A stretch of 64,000 bases of DNA, from NCBI GenBank assembly GCA_049287305.1, contig JBAQFO010000012.1, positions 89,768 through 153,767 on the forward strand, given 5' to 3'. The first letter of the stretch is position 1, and every line of letters starts with the position of its first letter. The DNA is from Minisyncoccia bacterium. GTDB taxonomy: Bacteria > Patescibacteriota > Minisyncoccia > Phycocordibacterales > UBA9973. Positions 17,635 to 54,657 of the stretch are shown piece by piece. Made by a program: the position numbers and the translations under genes. The notes under the pieces are model-generated. The model saw nothing but the letters and a program-made list of their open reading frames with translations, did no database searches and was not told the DNA's origin.

Positions 17635-17644
17635 AAACCTAAAC

Positions 17645-17674
17645 AAAAATCCCCCATATGGGGGATTTTTGTTT
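17645..17674 (+). terminator. intrinsic terminator: AAAAATCCCCC ATAT GGGGGATTTTT
   Basis: Perfect hairpin followed by a T-run after rpsR. Confidence 0.85.
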
Positions 17675-17814
17675 ATAGGTAAGGAATTTTTTTCTAAACT
17701 CTTTCTAGGCATACTTTTTATAATGCAATCTGTCTGGCGGTGCTCCGCCAGCGAACTGCTCGGCGCGACCGCCTGCGCAAGGCATTCTAAAAAGTAAGCC
17801 TACGACGAGTTTCG

Positions 17815-20298: not shown

Positions 20299-20366
20299 GC
20301 AGGGAGTTACTTTTACGAATGGTCTCTAGATTTGTTCCGAGGACCTGAGTAAAAGAAACTCCCTGC
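20299..20366. repeat. long inverted repeat with 18-bp arms and one mismatch (GCAGGGAGTTACTTTTAC ... GTAAAAGAAACTCCCTGC)
   Basis: Read from the sequence; it lies between the ftsK stop and the next gene's start, with no U-run on either strand. Confidence 0.6.
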
Positions 20367-20374
20367 GGCAGATT

Positions 20375-22591
20375 TTAAATTACGGTGTCTCCTTCGTCTG
20401 TTCGCTCTATTTTCTCAAGCACCTCTCTCGGCTTGGCGCCGTCGCCCGGTCCTATGACTCCTCGTTCTTCCAGCTTATCCATTAGTCGGGCAGCGCGAGC
20501 GTAACCAAGTTTCAATTTTCTTTGCAGGTAGGAGGTGGAAGCTTTTCCCGCTTCCATGACGCATGCCCTGGCTTCTTCATACATTTCGTCATCATCTTCC
20601 ATGCCGTCTTCTTCCAGGGAGGCTTCAAATATACTCTTATCAGCCGATATGGACCCTACCGATAGAGAAATTTCTTCGGAGATTTCGTCTTTATAAGCGT
20701 CGGCAAGATATTTTACAACTTTCTTTACTTCCGCTTCGGAGATGAAGGCGCTCTGCAGTCTTTCGGGCTGAGCTTCCCCAGAAGAGTAAAGCATGTCTCC
20801 CGCTCCGAGGAGCTTCTCGGCTCCGCCCGCATCCAGGATTGTTCGGGAATCTATTTGGGAAGAAACTTTAAGCGCTACACGAGCAGGAATGTTTGCCTTG
20901 ATAAGACCTGTAATAACGTTGACTTCGGGTCTCTGGGTAGAAAGTATTAAATGTATTCCCACTGCGCGGGACATTTGAGCTAAGCGAACAATTGCTGATT
21001 CTAATTCTCGGGGGTAAGTGCTCATTATGTCGGCGAGCTCGTCTATTATAATGACTATGTAAGGCATTCGGTCAGCGTTTATTTCCTCTTCCACTCCTTC
21101 GCTGTTGGTCTTCAGCTTCTTCGGCGACTTATTGAAGACGTTGTTGTGGTAAGACTCAATGTCCCGCACGGATTCCGCTTCCAATATGTCATATCGACGG
21201 TCCATTTCTTTTGCCGCCCATTTGAGGGCAAGGATTGTTTTCTTCGCTTCGGTAATAACAGGGGTGAGAAGGTGGGGGATGTTGTTATATAGAGTAAGCT
21301 CCACCCGTTTTGGGTCTATGAGGATAAGCTTGAGGTCATCGGGGCCGTTCCTATATAGAAGGGAAGTAATCATGGAATGGATAGTCACGGATTTCCCGGA
21401 GCCTGTTGTTCCTGCCACCAAGGCATGAGGCATTTTTGCCAAGTTCCCAAATACTGCCTTGCCGGAAATAGCGCGTCCCAGAGCCGTCGTCAGAGGCTTT
21501 GAAGAATTTACGAATTTATCGTCGGCTAGGAGAGTCGCAAGCCCGACGATGGACTTGGACTTGTTCGGAATTTCAATACCCACGAGAGATTTCCCCGGAA
21601 TAGGTGCTTCTATTCTAATAGGATGCGCTGCTAGAGAAAGGGCGAGGTCATTCTGAAGTCCCACGATGCGTGAGAGTTTCACTCCTTCGGCAGGCTTGAG
21701 GGCGTATCTGGTTACGGTAGGTCCGACGGTGATTTCATCCATTTCTACTTCAATGCCGAAGTTTGCGAGAGTGCGTTTTATTATATTCGCGTTTGCCTTG
21801 ATGTCTCCCGTGTTTGGTTTGCCCTTATCTTCTTCCAAGAGCGACAGTGGGGGAGGGATGTAGGTAGACACGAGTCCGCTTCTCATCTTCCTGATTGGCA
21901 TTTCTTCTTCTTCCGGCTTTTCTTCTTTCTTCTTGCCTACCCCGAGAGCGCTTTTGATTTTCGCTCCGGCGCTTTCTTTCGGTTCTTCATCTTCTTCCAC
22001 CGGTATAGCTTTCAGAACTTCTTTTGCTTCGTCTTCGTTAAGAGACACTTCCTCCAACTTTTCTTTTTTAGAGAACAACGCCATAATTTTGCGACCGATA
22101 GGGGCGAGGCTGAACTTGGCATCAAACATTATTGAAATTGAGATTATCAGAATAGCGAAAAGGAACACCAGGCTGGCGTATTTTTCAAAAAGCGCCAAGA
22201 ACGGCTTTGCCAATATTTCTCCGAAAAATCCTCCAGCGTGAGTGGCGGATGTTATGTCTATGATGCCCAAGCCTGAGAGCAGAAACATTGTTCCGCTTAC
22301 CATACGAGTCCAGCCGATATCAGGAGCTTCGGACTTCATAAAAGAGCTTGCGAGCAAGAAAAAAAGTATCGGCACCAAATAGTAACCGATGCCGAGAAGG
22401 TAGAAGAGTTTTTCATATACGAATGCTCCCGCCACTCCCGCCGCGCCGAACGCTGACATTAAAAAGAAGAAGGCGAAGACAAGGCATATCACCGCGATGA
22501 TTCCATGTTTGGTCTGAGTTTTTAATCCGTTTCCCGACTTGCTCTCATTCTTGTTATTTTTCCTATCAGTCCTTTTTTTATTTTGTTTCAT
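20375..22591 (-). CDS. ftsK: DNA translocase FtsK/SpoIIIE
   Basis: N-terminal TM region, Walker A GTTGSGKSV and a C-terminal winged-helix gamma domain. Confidence 0.9.
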   Translation of the reverse strand: MKQNKKRTDRKNNKNESKSGNGLKTQTKHGIIAVICLVFAFFFLMSAFGAAGVAGAFVYEKLFYLLGIGYYLVPILFFLLASSFMKSEAPDIGWTRMVSGTMFLLSGLGIIDITSATHAGGFFGEILAKPFLALFEKYASLVFLFAILIISISIMFDAKFSLAPIGRKIMALFSKKEKLEEVSLNEDEAKEVLKAIPVEEDEEPKESAGAKIKSALGVGKKKEEKPEEEEMPIRKMRSGLVSTYIPPPLSLLEEDKGKPNTGDIKANANIIKRTLANFGIEVEMDEITVGPTVTRYALKPAEGVKLSRIVGLQNDLALSLAAHPIRIEAPIPGKSLVGIEIPNKSKSIVGLATLLADDKFVNSSKPLTTALGRAISGKAVFGNLAKMPHALVAGTTGSGKSVTIHSMITSLLYRNGPDDLKLILIDPKRVELTLYNNIPHLLTPVITEAKKTILALKWAAKEMDRRYDILEAESVRDIESYHNNVFNKSPKKLKTNSEGVEEEINADRMPYIVIIIDELADIMSTYPRELESAIVRLAQMSRAVGIHLILSTQRPEVNVITGLIKANIPARVALKVSSQIDSRTILDAGGAEKLLGAGDMLYSSGEAQPERLQSAFISEAEVKKVVKYLADAYKDEISEEISLSVGSISADKSIFEASLEEDGMEDDDEMYEEARACVMEAGKASTSYLQRKLKLGYARAARLMDKLEERGVIGPGDGAKPREVLEKIERTDEGDTVI

Positions 22592-22605
22592 AATTTTTCA
22601 TTTTT

Positions 22606-22637
22606 CCCGCCCGTACCGAACGGTACGTTCGGGCGGG
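22606..22637. repeat. GC-rich hairpin CCCGCCCGTACCG AA CGGTACG(TT)CGGGCGGG just upstream of ftsK
   Basis: Read from the sequence. No T-tract follows on the ftsK strand, so it is not a terminator. Confidence 0.5.
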
Positions 22638-22747
22638 TGCCATATGGGTGTATTTTATCACATTTTATTTTTTCCCGCAGACCACTCAAAACACAGAATT
22701 GGTGCAAAACTTGGCTGAATATTTTTCTTGAAGTAAAGTTTTTCATT

Positions 22748-22850
22748 GGCGGGGTTGGTGTTAAATATAGTCCGAATATTTTTCTGCTAAAAAATTTCTC
22801 AAGACTCGCGCCGCCGCGCTCCGTAGCCTATATTTAACACCAACCCCGCC
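22748..22850 (+). repeat. hairpin element copy A: 23-bp perfect inverted arms GGCGGGGTTGGTGTTAAATATAG flanking a conserved loop (..TGCTAAAAAATTTCTCAAGACTCGCGCCGCCGCGCTCCGTAGC)
   Basis: Left arm 22748-22770, right arm 22828-22850. The loop is homologous to copies C and B. Confidence 0.6.
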
Positions 22851-22858
22851 ACCTCTTA

Positions 22859-22963
22859 AAAACAAGATATAGTTTTAAAATGACTACGGAGGCCGACGGG
22901 CCGAGTCCTGAGCAAAAATTCAGAAGAATTTTATGCGTGCATTTTAAAACTATATCTTGTTTT
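22859..22963 (-). repeat. hairpin element copy C: 24-bp perfect inverted arms AAAACAAGATATAGTTTTAAAATG with the conserved loop in opposite orientation
   Basis: Arms 22859-22882 and 22940-22963. The reverse complement of the loop (..TGCTCAGGACTCGGCCCGTCGGCCTCCGTAGT) aligns with the loop of copy A. Confidence 0.6.
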
Positions 22964-23007
22964 CTCTCCCTTAAAGGACTTGCAATCAAGGCGGAGGAGT
23001 ATATAAT

Positions 23008-23869
23008 GGACAGCATGTTTAGAGACAAGAAAGACATTCAGGAAAATCTCAAAGACTCCTCCGGGGACATGGGTCTCGCCATAAAGGACAGCCCAAATTC
23101 TATTTCATACACAAAGACCGATAAGCTAGTAACTGCTTTGTATATGGTCACGGACATCATAGACAAAGACGAACCTCTAAGGAACAAATTAAGGACATTG
23201 GGCACAAACATAATATCGGACATAAACGACGTTCCCGCGGGAGCTTGCGCCAGGATATCCGAAGTCATGTCCTTTTTAGACATCGCATTTGCCATGAATA
23301 TCATCTCTCAGATGAACTGCAATATTTTAAGAAAAGAATTCTCGGAACTTGACCAAGCTATCAGGGAGTCCGGAGACAATGGGGCAATACTGGCAAGGGG
23401 AGAAAGAAAGATAAACCTTTCAGAATTTTTCACGGAAGACGAATCGGAAGATTCCCACCCTTCTCTCCTGAAAGAAAATTTTTCTTCGCATCATGGACGC
23501 GCCCCCCGCAGCCTCGGAGTTCAAAAAGGAGGAACCCTCCTCAAGGCCTTGAAGGGGATAGAAGGAGGTGTCCATGTGTCCGATAAAACTTCACATATGT
23601 CCGATAGAGTTCACGAACATCACACTGCCGAGCACTTTGATGTCCTAAAGAAACAACGCCGTGAAGATATATTAAATGTAATAAAGATTATGGGTGGAAG
23701 CGCTACCATAACGGACATAAAGGACAAGGCCAAGACCTTGCCAGCCGGAATAGGTTCGCTATCCTCTTGCGGAGAAAAAACGCTCCAGAGAGAGCTTCTG
23801 TCTATGCTCAAAGACGGTGTCCTTAAGAAAACCGGAGAAAAAAGATGGAGCCGATATTTCGTGAAATAA
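23008..23869 (+). CDS. hypothetical protein with a C-terminal winged-helix-like segment
   Basis: The SD GGAGGAG precedes ATG 23008 (MDSMFRD). The track start at 22880 lies inside hairpin element C. The C-terminus has the pattern ILNVIKIMGG..TITDI...LQRELLSMLKDGVLKKTGEKRWSRY. Confidence 0.45.
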
Positions 23870-29456: not shown

Positions 29457-29734
29457 TCCCGTTAGAGATCACTTATGTTTTATTACACATATACTTTAAA
29501 AAGTAAGAAAGATGGCAAAATTTATACAGGATATACGCAAGACCTACGGAAGCGCCCGAGTGAGCATAATAAAGGTTTATCTACATATACTAAAGGACGA
29601 GGCCCATTTATTTTGATATACTACGAAGGGTGCTTATTAAAAGATAAAGCTAGGTCGAGAGAATTATATTTAAAATCAGGAATGGGCAAGCGTTATCTAA
29701 AAAATAGATTAGGCGCTTCCTACCTCTAACGGGA
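29457..29734. repeat. perfect 11-bp inverted repeats TCCCGTTAGAG (29457-29467) and CTCTAACGGGA (29724-29734) bracketing GIY-YIG copy 1
   Basis: Read from the sequence. The right repeat overlaps the GIY-YIG stop and the gmd ATG. Confidence 0.7.
29475..29729 (+). CDS. small stand-alone GIY-YIG nuclease-superfamily protein (YhbQ/UPF0213-like), copy 1
   Basis: [28 protein letters not shown]...ELYLK, with GIY-YIG-like YTGYT and a conserved Arg and Glu. About 85 aa. Paralogous to copies 2 and 3. Confidence 0.75.
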
Positions 29735-32604: not shown

Positions 32605-32877
32605 ATGTTCTACACATATATATTACAAAGTCAGAAAAATAAAGAACTATATATTGGTTATACTTCAGATTTAAAAAGAAGAGTCGAAGAACATAATCAA
32701 GGGTTAAATTTTTCTACAAAAAGATATATTCCATGGAATATCATATACTACGAAGCGTGTATAGAAGAAAGTGATGCTAAGCGCAGAGAGAAATATCTGA
32801 AAACAACACAAGGGAATAGATTAATAAAGAGAAGGATAAAAGATTATATTTATAAGTTGAAAAATTTAACAAATTAA
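32605..32877 (+). CDS. small stand-alone GIY-YIG nuclease-superfamily protein, copy 2
   Basis: MFYTYILQSQKNKELYIGYTSDLKRRVEEHN. It is bracketed by the imperfect inverted repeat TCCCGTAGTAG (32579-32589) and CACTACAGG (32883-32891). Confidence 0.75.
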   Translation: MFYTYILQSQKNKELYIGYTSDLKRRVEEHNQGLNFSTKRYIPWNIIYYEACIEESDAKRREKYLKTTQGNRLIKRRIKDYIYKLKNLTN

Positions 32878-44355: not shown

Positions 44356-45360
44356 TTACTTTTCGTGTTTATTGCAATCTAAGTATTTTTTTGAAATGAT
44401 TTTCTGCCACCAAGGCTTGTTTTCTTCATACCATTTAATGGTCTTTTGTATTCCTTCTTCAAAAGATACAGAAGGGCTCCATCCTAATTCTCGGGTAATT
44501 TTTGAATGATCCATGGCATAACGCATATCGTGCCCCCTACGATCTTCTACGAAAGTTTGTAAACTTTTCGGTTTATTTAGCAGGTTCAATATGGTATCAG
44601 TAATTTCAAGTCCATTTTTCTCTGAATCTCCCCCGATGCAATACGTCTCTCCTATTTTGCCTTTGTGGATTATTAAATCAAGAGCTTCACAATGATCTAT
44701 GACATACAAATAGTCTCGCACAGCTTTACCTTTACCATAAACAGGCAAAGGTTTGTTTTCAAAAGCATTAGTTATAAAAAGTGGGATTATTTTTTCCGGA
44801 AACTGGAACGGGCCATAGTTATTTGTACAGTTTGAAATTGTGGCAGGGAAATTGTATGTTTCAATGAAAGCCCTGACTAGGTGATCTGAGCCAGCCTTTG
44901 ATGCGGAGTAAGGGGACCTAGGAGAATACGGAGTATTCTCCTTAAATTTTTCTCCCGGTTTGTCGAGCGACAAGGTGCCGAAAACTTCGTCGGTGGATAC
45001 GTGGTGAAATCTTTTTAAATTAAACTTTCTTGCAGTTTCTAACAACACCAGTGTGCCTTTGACATTGGTTTCGACAAAATCTTCTGGGTTCTCAATTGAC
45101 CTATCCACGTGGGACTCGGCGGCAAAATGAACCACCAAATCACATCCCGTCATTGCTTGCATAACTATTTTTCTATCGCAAATGTCGCCGTGAATAAATG
45201 TATAATTTGGGTTATTCTCTATGCTTTTTAAATTGTCTAAATTTCCAGCATAGGTTAGTTTGTCTAGGTTTACTACCTCGTAGGTAGGGTATTTATTCAT
45301 CATATAGATGATAAAGTTTGAACCTATGAATCCAGCTCCACCCGTGACTAGAATTTTCAT
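44356..45360 (-). CDS. rfbB: dTDP-glucose 4,6-dehydratase
   Basis: MKILVTGGAGFIGSNF and YSASK. The start ATG at 45358-45360 overlaps the stop of GIY-YIG copy 3. The longer track ORF to 45465 is that upstream gene read in another frame. Confidence 0.9.
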   Translation of the reverse strand: MKILVTGGAGFIGSNFIIYMMNKYPTYEVVNLDKLTYAGNLDNLKSIENNPNYTFIHGDICDRKIVMQAMTGCDLVVHFAAESHVDRSIENPEDFVETNVKGTLVLLETARKFNLKRFHHVSTDEVFGTLSLDKPGEKFKENTPYSPRSPYSASKAGSDHLVRAFIETYNFPATISNCTNNYGPFQFPEKIIPLFITNAFENKPLPVYGKGKAVRDYLYVIDHCEALDLIIHKGKIGETYCIGGDSEKNGLEITDTILNLLNKPKSLQTFVEDRRGHDMRYAMDHSKITRELGWSPSVSFEEGIQKTIKWYEENKPWWQKIISKKYLDCNKHEK

Positions 45361-45629
45361 CACGTATGAAATAGGAATCGTTTTAAACGAGAATTTAAAT
45401 ATCTTCTCCCCATTCCTGTTTTTAAATATAATTCTCTCGACCGAGCATCGTCTGCGTTTAGACATGCCTCATAGTACATAATCTTATATGGTCCACGTCC
45501 TTTTGTATATGTTGACTTACCTTCATTGTGCTGTTTAAAACGCTTCCGTAATTCACTCGTATATCCAATATACCACTTATTATTCTTTTGACTTTGTAAA
45601 ACGTAAGTATAGAACATATTAGATTTCAT
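45360..45629 (-). CDS. small stand-alone GIY-YIG nuclease-superfamily protein, copy 3 (probable start at MFYTY, 45617)
   Basis: MFYTYVLQSQKNNKWYIGYTSELRKRFKQHN; STYTKGRGP and ARSRELYLK are shared with copy 1. The direct repeat CGTGACTA occurs at 45343-45350 and 45631-45638. Confidence 0.75.
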   Translation of the reverse strand: MKSNMFYTYVLQSQKNNKWYIGYTSELRKRFKQHNEGKSTYTKGRGPYKIMYYEACLNADDARSRELYLKTGMGRRYLNSRLKRFLFHT

Positions 45630-52480: not shown

Positions 52481-52852
52481 ATGAACAAAGATACATTATT
52501 GGAATGGTTAGACAAAGCAACAACCCTTGAACTAAATGAAGTTGTGAAAGCTATTGAAGAAAAATTCGGAGTATCCGCTCAAGCTGTCGCTGTAGCAGGA
52601 GGCGGAGGAGCCGCAGCCGGCGCCGAAGCAGCCGAAGAGAAAGACGCCTTTACTGTTGTTCTAGCATCAGCCGGAGAACAGAAAATCGCCGTGATGAAAG
52701 TTGTGAAAGAAGCTCTAGGACTAGGACTTAAAGACGCAAAGGATTTGGTTGACGCCGCTCCTTCTACCTTGAAAGAAGGAATGAAGAAAGCCGAAGCTGA
52801 AGACTTGAAGAAGAAAGTTGAGGAAGCTGGAGGAAAGGTTGAACTTAAATAG
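52481..52852 (+). CDS. rplL: 50S ribosomal protein L7/L12
   Basis: Ala/Gly-rich hinge and the conserved C-terminal domain [16 protein letters not shown]...[12 protein letters not shown]. Confidence 0.95.
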
Positions 52853-52874
52853 TTCAACCTTCGGCAACTTATTA

Positions 52875-52950
52875 TTTTAGACTGCACGGATATTTTTTTG
52901 CTAAAAAATTCCTCGTGCTCGAGCCGTCGCTCTCGCAAGTCAGCCTAAAA
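52875..52950 (+). repeat. hairpin element copy B (imperfect arms TTTTAGACTGCAC / GTCAGCCTAAAA; conserved loop ..TGCTAAAAAATTCCTCGTGCTCGAGCCGTCGCTCTCGCAAG)
   Basis: The loop aligns with copies A and C. It sits in the rplL 3' region upstream of the purH terminator. Confidence 0.5.
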
Positions 52951-53021
52951 CAACAAGTTACCTCCGTTGTAGCCCTTACAAAATACAAATTGCTTTCCTT
53001 GCCTAGAAATACTAAAATTAA

Positions 53022-53049
53022 AACACCCGTAAAGGGTGTTTTAATTTTT
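53022..53049 (+). terminator. intrinsic terminator: CACCC GTAAA GGGTG then TTTTAATTTTT
   Basis: Perfect 5-bp stem and T tract immediately before the purH ATG. Confidence 0.7.
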
Positions 53050-54657
53050 ATGAAACAAAAAACTGCCCTAATATCTGTATATAACAAAGAAGGCATAGTG
53101 GAATTTGCCAAAGAACTCGTAAACCTAGACTGGAAGATAGTTTCTTCGGGAGGCACAGCCAAGCACTTGGTGGAAGCTGGGGTGGCTGTCACGGACGTAG
53201 AAGAGATAACGGGCATGCCCGCTATTTTATCCCACAGAGTAGTGACACTTCATCCGAAAATCCACGGAGGGCTTCTAGCTCTGAATACTCCTGAACATTT
53301 AGCAGAATTGGAAAAATATGGAATTCCTTGGATAGATATGGTCTGCGTGGACCTTTATCCGTTGGAAGAAGAAACCAAAAGTCCAAACGCAACCCTAGAG
53401 TCGGTCATAGAAAAAACAGATATAGGCGGACCCACAATGATTCGCTCGGGAGCGAAAGGTGGACGTATCGTTGTTTGTGACCCCGCCGACCGGGCAAAAG
53501 TAATTGATTGGCTAAAAAACGGCGAAGCGGAGAGAGAAGAATTTTTAAATAATTTGTCCGCAAAAGCGGAAGCGGTAATAGCCAGGTATTGTTCTATGTC
53601 CGGAGAATATAGAAGTGGGGGAGAGTCAAAAGGAATCTTCGGAAACAAACAATTGGAATGCGCTTATGGTGAAAACGCCTACCAAAAACCCGCCAGCCTG
53701 TATGGAAATTTAAATACAAAAGAAGACGCGCTTGCGATTCATAATTGGCAGCTTGTGGCGGGTAGCCCCTTGAGCTACAACAATATTTGCGACTTGGATA
53801 GAATGATGCAAACGATGACCCACATCGGTGCGGGATTTGAGAAAAATTTTGCAAAAGAAAATAAAGGAGTTCCATTCGTGGCTATCGGAGCCAAGCACGG
53901 CAATGCCTGCGGAGCGGGTATCGGTGAAAATGAAATTGAGGCAATCGGGAAGATGCTTCAGGGGGATTTGCGCGCTATTTTCGGCGGTTCGGTTATGCTT
54001 AATTTCCCGGTGGATGAAAATATTGCGGAAGAACTTATTCACAAATACGCGGGAGAAGGAAGACGGCTTTTGGATATCGTCGCTGCTCCATCTTTCAGCC
54101 TCGAAGCGGTAGAAATTCTTTCCCGCAAAAAGGGAAAATGCAGACTGCTTGCCAACCTCGCTATTTCCAAGGCGGGACTTGCGACGCTTGATGTTGCAAT
54201 GAGGTTTCGCTATGTTCGGGGAGGTTTTATGGAACAGCCCAATTATACTTTTGTGCCCGATATAAATAACAAAGATATTATCCTGGCATGGGCAGTGGGA
54301 AGCACTTCTAATAGTAACACCATAACCCTAGTTAAAGACGGAAGGCTTTACGGGAACGGCGTGGGTCAGCAAGACCGGGTAGGGGCGGCCAAGCTTGCGA
54401 TTTTCCGAGCGGATGACGCGGCCAAATTTTCTGATGCTACGCTGGAGATGGCGGACCTGGAGAACGCGACAGCTTACAGCGACAGCTTCTTTCCTTTTCC
54501 TGATGCTCCGGAAACCCTAATAAATCGGGGGATCAAAACTATTTTCTCAACAAGCGGTTCGGTCAATGACGAGAAAATAATAGAGTTGTGTAAGGCTAAA
54601 AATGTAAATCTTGTATTAATTCCCGACACGGAAGCAAGGGGATTTTATCAACACTAG
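53050..54657 (+). CDS. purH: bifunctional AICAR transformylase / IMP cyclohydrolase
   Basis: MKQKTALISVYNKEGIVEFAKEL...TGGTAKHL. The true start is ATG 53050; the track ORF from 52915 is an upstream extension. Confidence 0.85.
   Translation: MKQKTALISVYNKEGIVEFAKELVNLDWKIVSSGGTAKHLVEAGVAVTDVEEITGMPAILSHRVVTLHPKIHGGLLALNTPEHLAELEKYGIPWIDMVCVDLYPLEEETKSPNATLESVIEKTDIGGPTMIRSGAKGGRIVVCDPADRAKVIDWLKNGEAEREEFLNNLSAKAEAVIARYCSMSGEYRSGGESKGIFGNKQLECAYGENAYQKPASLYGNLNTKEDALAIHNWQLVAGSPLSYNNICDLDRMMQTMTHIGAGFEKNFAKENKGVPFVAIGAKHGNACGAGIGENEIEAIGKMLQGDLRAIFGGSVMLNFPVDENIAEELIHKYAGEGRRLLDIVAAPSFSLEAVEILSRKKGKCRLLANLAISKAGLATLDVAMRFRYVRGGFMEQPNYTFVPDINNKDIILAWAVGSTSNSNTITLVKDGRLYGNGVGQQDRVGAAKLAIFRADDAAKFSDATLEMADLENATAYSDSFFPFPDAPETLINRGIKTIFSTSGSVNDEKIIELCKAKNVNLVLIPDTEARGFYQH

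Follow-up and report, generated by a model that had tools for sequence, protein, structure and literature searches.

Rickettsia palindromic elements (RPEs), which Ogata et al. described in 2000, are repeats of ~105-150 bp that form several families in reduced genomes and are inserted in frame in Rickettsia genes (reviewed in PMC10969869 and PMC3184786). Judged by their descriptions, they appear to be the closest known kind to the hairpin repeats analyzed here, which lie in a 64,000-nucleotide stretch of DNA, hereafter the window, from a Minisyncoccia bacterium (assembly GCA_049287305.1, contig JBAQFO010000012.1, positions 89,768 to 153,767). The window matches a metagenome-assembled genome (MAG) of Minisyncoccia, a Paceibacteria-type member of the candidate phyla radiation (CPR). 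An original prediction, made from the letters of the window alone, had proposed a family of hairpin repeats in which the arm sequences are free and the loop is conserved, with two copies, A and C, side by side in inverted orientation and a third copy, B, elsewhere. Covariation among further copies bears out this family and adds two more covarying helices to it.

Copy A (22747-22851, plus strand; type 1 core) sets the reference orientation ("A-orientation") and consists of a 5' arm (22747-22770), a core (22771-22827), and a 3' arm (22828-22851), the arms forming a perfect stem of 24 bp where 23 bp had been given. Copy C (22859-22963, minus strand; type 2 core) has perfect arms of 24 bp, as predicted, at 22859-22882 and 22940-22963, around a core at 22883-22939. 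The two copies lie 7 nt apart in inverted orientation to each other, and each encloses exactly 57 nt and not the ~45-nt loop first proposed. Their arms are, as had been noted, unrelated beyond a few inner A/T-rich bases, while their cores, read as inverted copies, are 70% identical over 54 nt. The similarity of the loops survives statistical treatment: covariance-model scores are 111.4 bits for A and 111.3 bits for C (the latter on the minus strand), and a profile search of the window returned A, B, and C at E ~1e-20. Moreover, no dinucleotide shuffle folds as well as A or C on either strand (z = -7.9 to -9.7), which excludes a chance origin of these hairpins.

The element is a three-way junction, in which the supposed loop folds into two mini-hairpins on either strand. 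The long stem, P1, is the variable one; P3, of 10 bp and rich in A/T, has a bulged T that never varies (T32) and ends in a TGCT or TACT tetraloop; and P2 is a 4-bp G/C stem closed by a CGTC, CAGTC, or CGCC loop. In copy A, the A/T hairpin P3 spans ~22774-22798 and the G/C hairpin P2 spans ~22808-22819. The strands at the junction are conserved, with CTCAAGACTC and TCCGTAGCC in type 1 and type 2 cores and CTCGTGCTC and TCCCAAGT in B-type cores. Across the family, stems of 12-36 bp surround a core of ~55-57 nt (55-56 nt in the B-type), giving a whole element of ~100-115 bp. Inner arm bases are semi-conserved within core subtypes, and the outer arms are unrelated between nearly all loci, with a median pairwise score at background. 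Some copies have composite stems, in which the outer stem is perfect and the inner stem imperfect.

Further copies were collected in two scans, both of which demanded the conserved core motif: a pattern scan of one genome per species, which returned 84 stretches including ~45 true copies by profile matching, and a scan of metagenomes anchored on P3 only, in which 119 of the 120 loci listed were true. Together, the scans yielded at least 171 distinct copies; labels such as L019, L075, and L143 denote carrier loci or genomes from this comparison set, of which L101-L174 derive from groundwater samples. In an ungapped alignment of 40 genome copies, changes on both sides were seen in 35 of 39 pairs (25/25 in P1, 7/10 in P3, and 3/4 in P2), and 98-100% of P2 and P3 cells were paired. 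An independent set of 112 metagenome copies, aligned by the model, showed such changes in 38 of 39 pairs. None of 500 shuffles reached the observed covariation in either set, and slid registers came nowhere near it in the 40-copy set. The exchange of pairs is readily seen in P2, where the variants include GCGC/GCGC, GGCC/GGCC, GGCT/AGCC, GCAC/GTGC, GAGC/GCTC, GCTT/AAGC, and others. In one copy (L030, 1911-2022), P3 is broken by an extra ~35 nt that are G+C-rich and self-pairing, which may represent a nested insertion at the mini-hairpin tip.

The third predicted copy is real and does have imperfect arms; its bounds, first placed at 52875-52950, are now 52863-52962 (plus strand). Copy B has a B-type core of 56 nt, a covariance-model score of 69.8 bits, and 22-bp arms (52863-52884 and 52941-52962) with 4 mismatches, all of them A·C as read on the plus strand. 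A profile of A, B, and C gave no further match in the window at E < 0.5. The covariance-model search did so, and a fourth copy that had been missed earlier, D (17702-17808, plus strand), surfaced in it at 38.5 bits (E = 7.5e-8). Copy D is a divergent member in which P3 is swapped for a G+C-rich stem (CTGGCGG/CCGCCAG) with the TGCT loop retained. In named genome records, all true copies come from CPR MAGs, with record titles that include Nomurabacteria, Paceibacterota, Parcubacteria, Lloydbacteria, Minisyncoccia, 'Saccharibacteria', and uncultured bacterium, some of these third-party annotation (TPA) labels being possibly loose. High-G+C matches of the pattern scan were all chance matches. Additionally, 9 pattern matches in viral contigs included no true copy, and collections of phage records and plasmid records gave no match. 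Full-text literature searches returned no description of such elements in CPR bacteria.

Wobble pairs are nearly absent from the core helices, with 1609 Watson-Crick, 8 A·C, and 2 G·T pairs in P3 and 612 Watson-Crick, 4 A·C, and 4 G·T pairs in P2; both strands therefore fold equally well. Such scarcity is typical of DNA palindromes more than of RNAs, and in a functional RNA it is unusual. In the arms, isolated transition mismatches read on the A-orientation strand are strongly asymmetric, with 133 A·C versus 33 G·T (p = 2e-15). The A·C to G·T ratio is 54:13 where the element is sense to the flanking genes and 21:11 where it is antisense, and, inside open reading frames (ORFs), 14:5 for sense and 12:2 for antisense copies. 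Transcription was rejected as the source of this bias because the bias persists antisense to genes and inside ORFs. Replication direction was likewise rejected, the GC skew of the element strand being positive at 65 loci and negative at 40, as was arm base composition, for which random pairing was calculated to give ~1.2:1 against the 4:1 observed. The treatment of the element's two strands differs, and it follows the core's own orientation and not the direction of transcription. Two readings fit this observation, namely that the complementary strand must fold, with G·T tolerated there, or that one of the strands is the more exposed to deamination. A transcript of host genes would agree with neither, and in most genic and tRNA contexts the strand that tolerates wobble runs antisense to the host gene.

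ORF contexts were counted for 153 copies with well-defined stems, and 27 of these lie inside long ORFs (14 sense and 13 antisense). Hosts checked against Pfam are MnmA, PheT (3 loci), TsaD (2 loci), Dus, UvrD/PcrA, RecG, a class-V aminotransferase (Aminotran_5, IscS/SufS-like; 2 loci), and a PMT_2 glycosyltransferase, with MnmA carrying two copies in one genome. A concatenated peptide search, in which the matches are short and just 18 hits fell at E <= 1, adds RsmE, TruB, and RNase HII as hosts. The predicted inserted peptides include SPDIFLLKNSS... in MnmA, HGYFSAEKFLVLAPSRS... in PheT, and GIFQQKNIRA... in TsaD. The B-type core is open in 5 of 6 frames, and all five occur in real genes. A length that is a multiple of three was rejected as a rule of the family, being true of A and C (105 nt) and failing in general both within and outside ORFs.

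MnmA offers a view of such sites that is unbiased by the core motif, as its 111 orthologs were gathered by protein similarity. One linker site holds this hairpin family in 33 of them; many of the ~40 sequences with an insert of similar length hold a second hairpin family (peptide LSHGSHS...), and the remaining orthologs have other families, short segments, or nothing there. Among "empty" orthologs, a perfect hairpin of 17 bp with an unrelated sequence is present in one, and in another the core has been lost from arms that remain. Two variable segments of the MnmA surface take up the inserts. An AlphaFold model of MnmA, which is weak evidence on the inserts, gives these segments a predicted local distance difference test (pLDDT) score below 50, in a model with a mean pLDDT of 69 and much of the middle domain also at low confidence. 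The first variable segment of MnmA holds other in-frame hairpins with different G+C-rich tips (L073 6399-6501, L039 2276-2370, L078 888-982, L097 1881-1970, and L098 1877-1960). Those of L097 and L098 have the tip GGAGCCCGCTYGCGGGTAAAGCGG in common, in opposite orientations, and form a second core family at this other MnmA site. The peptide family LSHGSHS...AEEST occurs at either MnmA site, depending on the genome.

Intergenic copies start a median of ~10 nt past the stop codon of a co-directional upstream gene and are often equally close to the end of a convergent gene, with 40 co-directional versus 17 opposite contexts. Copy B, for example, begins 10 nt past the stop codon of rplL. In the 8-nt flanks, T outnumbers A by 444 to 311 on the 5' side and by 437 to 309 on the 3' side, and this excess of T over A on both flanks means that terminator polarity is absent. 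A type-2 copy lies between two tRNA-Thr genes in three genomes, and adjacent pairs like A and C were also found in L075, L151, L157, and L108, in convergent, divergent, and tandem arrangements. A direct motif, CTCGCTCG, stands on both flanks of the copies in L019, L051, L053, L057, L069, L034, L064, L080, and L074, several of which have DnaA-box-like sequences (TTATCCACA / TGTGGATAA) within ~35 nt; this subgroup may mark a conserved origin-proximal locus. In L035, L081, L085, and L026, orthologous copies lie directly upstream of an extended -10-like box (TGCTATACT/TGCTATAAT) with an ATG ~7-10 nt further on, which suggests a leaderless or short-leader gene start adjoining the hairpin.

The unit that is copied is evident from two copies in L143 that lie 950 bp apart, one within mnmA and the other in the spacer just upstream of it. 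Their 57-nt cores are identical, and their arms differ at three paired positions and by one paired 1-base deletion; of the three changes, two are fully compensated, one of these with transversions in both arms, and one has left a lone A·C mismatch. Homology ends exactly at the arm ends, and the flanks are unrelated. Arms shared within unrelated flanks indicate that the whole hairpin, arms included, is what was copied, and the element is a copied, insertable DNA unit. The view that the repeat is not a transposon with fixed inverted repeats stands insofar as it is no classical transposable element of the miniature inverted-repeat kind (MITE), and was too strong where it implied that the repeat is not a transposon. 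Gain and loss can be followed in the spacer between an RNase T-like gene and mnmA, which is empty in L098 (9 nt), holds a core-less perfect 19-bp palindrome in L073, and holds the same arms as L073 with a decayed type-2 core in L097; the corresponding spacer upstream of mnmA in L143 has a full B-type copy. Several hairpin families exist, certain sites are reused, and cores can be lost, replaced, or flipped.

Copies can also reside at one site for a long time. The ftsK locus that carries A and C is orthologous in L075 and L086, where the neighboring protein is only 52% and 61% identical, respectively. Copy A is present in both, with 49-50 of 57 core positions and 12-17 of 24 arm positions identical and every change compensated, and copy C is intact in L075 (core 50/57, arms 19/24) and half decayed in L086 (core 29/57). 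At this locus, retained copies thus have identities of 86-88% in cores and 50-79% in arms, and the spacers have 35-43%, which equals background. Additionally, arms and flanks like those of B occur in L160 and L187, and L033 has a type-1 copy with unrelated arms whose flank nearly matches the 3' flank of copy D, where efp ends.

Taken together, we judge it somewhat more probable than the contrary that A-D belong to a family of non-autonomous palindromic DNA elements that are RPE-like, have a new architecture, are handled in a strand-specific manner, and are mainly selfish. The elements insert into intergenic DNA, typically a few bases past a stop codon, and into housekeeping genes with the frame left open. 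A copy once placed is inherited for very long times, its core near-constant and its arms drifting yet staying paired. The core may be a recognition module for a putative trans-acting protein that would handle the element as a folded single strand, much as hairpins are read by single-strand transposases and integron integrases; the two strands are treated differently, in that G·T-type mismatches accumulate on one strand only. Pairing of the arms could be maintained by selection on the folded strand or by hairpin-templated repair, and the element would be mainly selfish and tolerated, as RPEs would be. A bolder proposal, put forward tentatively and with clearly less than even confidence, is a new class of mobile DNA in which a three-way-junction tip on one folded strand is recognized, the sequence-free stem is regenerated or corrected by fold-back templating, and spread through the genes and spacers of CPR bacteria takes place by a strand-specific route via a single strand, without fixed ends or target duplication; alternatively, such an element may have been domesticated as a cis-acting site at conserved loci.

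Several observations weigh against a selfish, RPE-like family. Neither a target-site duplication nor a clear target motif was found at the L143 pair or in the L098/L073/L097/L143 series, a small sample in the case of the duplication. Only one clear intragenomic duplicate, that of L143, was seen, and since nearly all other arms are unique, recent mobility is poorly documented. No partner gene or transposase was found among ten ORFs between nearby copies: nine are ordinary housekeeping genes (tyrosine recombinase, Exo_endo_phos nuclease, S41 peptidase, L9, YqeY, ATP synthase subunits, and others) and one has no Pfam match. A composite transposon was rejected, these ORFs including no transposase. 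The strand bias could be mutational, arising where one strand is exposed while the other folds, and not selective. Further, the preservation of cores and arms far above spacers at orthologous sites suggests that selection acts on them where they lie. Such conservation would not be expected of an insert that is purely selfish and decaying, and a host function therefore keeps appreciable weight; as the scans needed the core motif, conservation of the core across the whole sample is partly an effect of ascertainment.

Such a function would make the element a host-beneficial cis structure, either a cruciform or hairpin DNA site for a conserved CPR protein of chromosome organization, replication, or repair or a 3'-end or processing signal, under purifying selection at each locus and with the genic copies as by-products. 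We regard this as unlikely though worth serious consideration. It would account for cores and arms being far better kept than spacers at orthologous loci of distant genomes, for the compensation of all arm changes, for intergenic copies lying a median of ~10 nt past stop codons, and for the reappearance of copies in different genomes at equivalent places, namely upstream of ftsK, past rplL, at the 3' end of efp, and between two tRNA-Thr genes. It does not sit well with the ~18% of copies that interrupt conserved enzymes in both orientations, the competition of unrelated hairpin families for the same sites and the lack of any hairpin in some orthologs, the half-decayed copy C of L086, the flanks without terminator-like polarity (T > A on both sides), or an orientation that is not fixed relative to genes or GC skew. 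Mobility of the core alone, by insertion of the core and a few inner stem pairs into the tips of existing hairpins or palindromes (terminators or older elements), so that the outer arms represent the target, seems improbable. It would explain core-less perfect palindromes where a full element sits elsewhere (L073 vs L097; L097/P0006 vs L073), core-less palindromes in the window itself (17640-17675 and 653-682), related outer arms with cores of a different subtype or flipped (L078 vs L073, L143 vs L039, and L097 vs L098), composite stems, and inner arm bases semi-conserved by subtype. However, the L143 pair has full arms in common within unrelated flanks, pre-existing perfect hairpins of 15-25 bp in 27 different coding regions are unlikely, and loss of cores explains core-less palindromes equally well.

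The reading of the element as a structured RNA, non-coding or cis-regulatory, with its action at the transcript level, which the original prediction had preferred, is more improbable still. Three covarying helices and strong predicted folds would suit it, and with the G·U-tolerant strand taken as the RNA, transcription of A would run toward ftsK and that of C toward the downstream gene. Yet copies are found within ORFs, in frame and in both orientations, the wobble-tolerant strand is mostly antisense to the host transcript in genic and tRNA contexts, P2 and P3 are almost without G·U in a near-pure Watson-Crick core despite many compensatory changes, the bias follows the orientation of the element, a promoter at a fixed position is absent, and Rfam gives no match. 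The element is probably not an RNA gene. Least credible, and very improbable in our judgment, is an invertible switch in which the 57-nt core flips between the arms and so recodes a host protein or flips a signal, as in intragenic invertons. The perfect inverted repeats around 57 nt (19 codons), the readability of both orientations, and orthologous sites with oppositely oriented cores, which are differences between genomes, are all in keeping with a switch, but arms that differ at every locus would be unrecognizable to a site-specific invertase, B-type cores have 55-56 nt, and frequent flipping would erase the strand bias of the arm mismatches. A family of mainly selfish palindromic DNA elements remains our preferred reading.

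In the window, copies A and C lie between ftsK (20375-22591, minus strand; Pfam FtsK_SpoIIIE, alpha, gamma, and 4TM domains), which is divergent from the pair, and a conserved hypothetical gene on the plus strand whose annotated 5' end was correctly noted to fall within a hairpin. Public annotation starts this gene at ATG 22880, inside C, and makes it 329 aa long, adding 42 codons (22880-23005). Its homologs are mostly ~240-310 aa long, and a start motif, TATATAATGGACA, at 23006 is conserved across orthologous loci, with a ribosome-binding site (GGAGGAG) upstream. Homolog length and the conserved motif together argue that the gene starts at 23006 (23006-23869) and not at 22880, and open frames of hairpin elements probably cause similar over-extensions of genes elsewhere. 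Between the ftsK stop and the next gene, a long hairpin at 20299-20366 has 18-nt arms (94% complementary), and its 32-nt loop folds into a small G/C stem of its own. Conservation of this hairpin in L033 reaches 88% over 52 nt, and it is possibly a member of a separate family.

Copy D is bounded on one side by a perfect palindrome that follows rpsR and on the other by the efp stop codon. The idea that the window consists of several joined contigs was rejected, as efp runs unbroken over the supposed junction. The palindrome (17640-17675), 6 nt after the rpsR stop and just before D, is 36 bp long, perfect, and without a spacer (TAAACAAAAATCCCCCAT|ATGGGGGATTTTTGTTTA), and it resembles core-less hairpins at sites where other genomes have a full element. 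Another perfect palindrome without a spacer, of 30 bp (TACGTAATGTATTAC|GTAATACATTACGTA), lies at 653-682. The upstream neighbor of copy B is the L7/L12 gene rplL (52481-52852, plus strand). In this region (52481-54657), rplJ-rplL is followed by purH (AICARFT/IMPCHase) and not by rpoB, and a 15-bp perfect hairpin resembling a bidirectional terminator (53014-53048) lies directly before purH. Three free-standing GIY-YIG nuclease paralogs, at 29475-29729 (plus), 32605-32877 (plus), and 45360-45617 (minus), encode 84-90 aa with 45-62% identity amid genes of sugar-nucleotide and polysaccharide biosynthesis, and look like mobile homing-type genes. GIY-YIG enzymes were rejected as partners of the element, none being nearer than ~1.4 kb to any copy across 1.55 Mb of loci.

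These elements provide a second, independent, and much larger example of coding palindromes, from a huge uncultured radiation. To our knowledge, the spread of protein-coding palindromes has gone unexplained since the Rickettsia elements were described in 2000, and a defined structural core, a strand asymmetry, and a series of filled, empty, and core-less sites make the mechanism of spread testable. In CPR bacteria, MnmA, PheT, TsaD, Dus, UvrD, RecG, and further core enzymes gain 20-40 residues from them, and some unusual insertions that have been reported for CPR proteins may have this origin; a 2024 review of MITEs describes the effect of coding palindromes on protein evolution as still unexplored. 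The elements also distort gene calls, as at the annotated start beside C, and could serve as markers for strain typing.

Several known systems resemble the element in part. Like repetitive extragenic palindromic (REP) sequences with their REPIN-RAYT systems and the ends of IS200/IS605 elements, in which a hairpin is recognized as a folded single strand, it has a strand asymmetry, and in the small sample examined it shows no target duplication; its G·T wobble and bulge may correspond to those of the hairpin recognized in such systems, and type 1 and type 2 cores carry GTAG next to the stem. B-type cores, however, lack GTAG, REP stem sequences are conserved within a genome, and a RAYT or TnpA gene defines those systems, whereas no transposase was present among the ten ORFs scanned between nearby copies. 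A REP reading was provisionally rejected on these grounds, and the 133 A·C versus 33 G·T mismatches and the invariant P3 bulge T32 are compatible with this kind without being specific to it. Integron attC sites likewise conserve structure over sequence, are used strand-specifically as a folded single strand, and lie downstream of ORFs, but they combine conserved outer R''/R' boxes with a variable tip, the reverse of the CPR element, which in addition has no cassette arrays and no intI gene. This candidate was rejected, since the RYYYAAC / GTTRRRY boxes are not found at the stem base and it is the tip that is conserved and the stem base that varies. SPRITE, a pneumococcal rho-independent-terminator-like repeat of ~105 bp (PMC3184786), is of equal size and is biased to positions just past gene 3' ends; the CPR element differs in having no U-run polarity, a conserved branched tip, and frequent intragenic copies, and an intrinsic terminator or SPRITE-like element was rejected because both flanks are equally T-rich and the T-run test fails. 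An Rfam RNA family was rejected as well, there being no match to a curated model and no consistently transcribed G·U-tolerant strand; the whole window gave no hits at the gathering score, and hits at E <= 10 in 22550-23050 were mostly to generic long-hairpin miRNA-precursor models, none of them at the family gathering score.

MITEs (ERIC, Correia, Nezha, and RUP) are, like the CPR element, small, non-autonomous, hairpin-forming, and multi-copy, and some are fused to ORFs. Unlike the CPR element, whose arms are not shared, they have common terminal inverted repeats and target-site duplications, and a MITE was rejected because the outer arms are unrelated between nearly all loci and a target-site duplication was not seen in the small sample. 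The likeness to RPEs, as these are described, extends further: both are multi-copy long-hairpin repeats of ~100-150 bp (here at least 171 copies), both come in several families in reduced genomes, both occur between genes and, unusually often, within unrelated housekeeping genes, in frame and with the ORF left open, and both lack a transposase of their own and are kept at orthologous sites. The hosts differ, those described here being CPR/Paceibacteria. Moreover, RPE copies align over their whole length, whereas in the CPR element only the 57-nt tip is conserved and a stem of 2 x 20-30 nt differs at almost every locus and stays paired, with a clear strand bias in the mismatches of its arms that sets it apart from RPEs.

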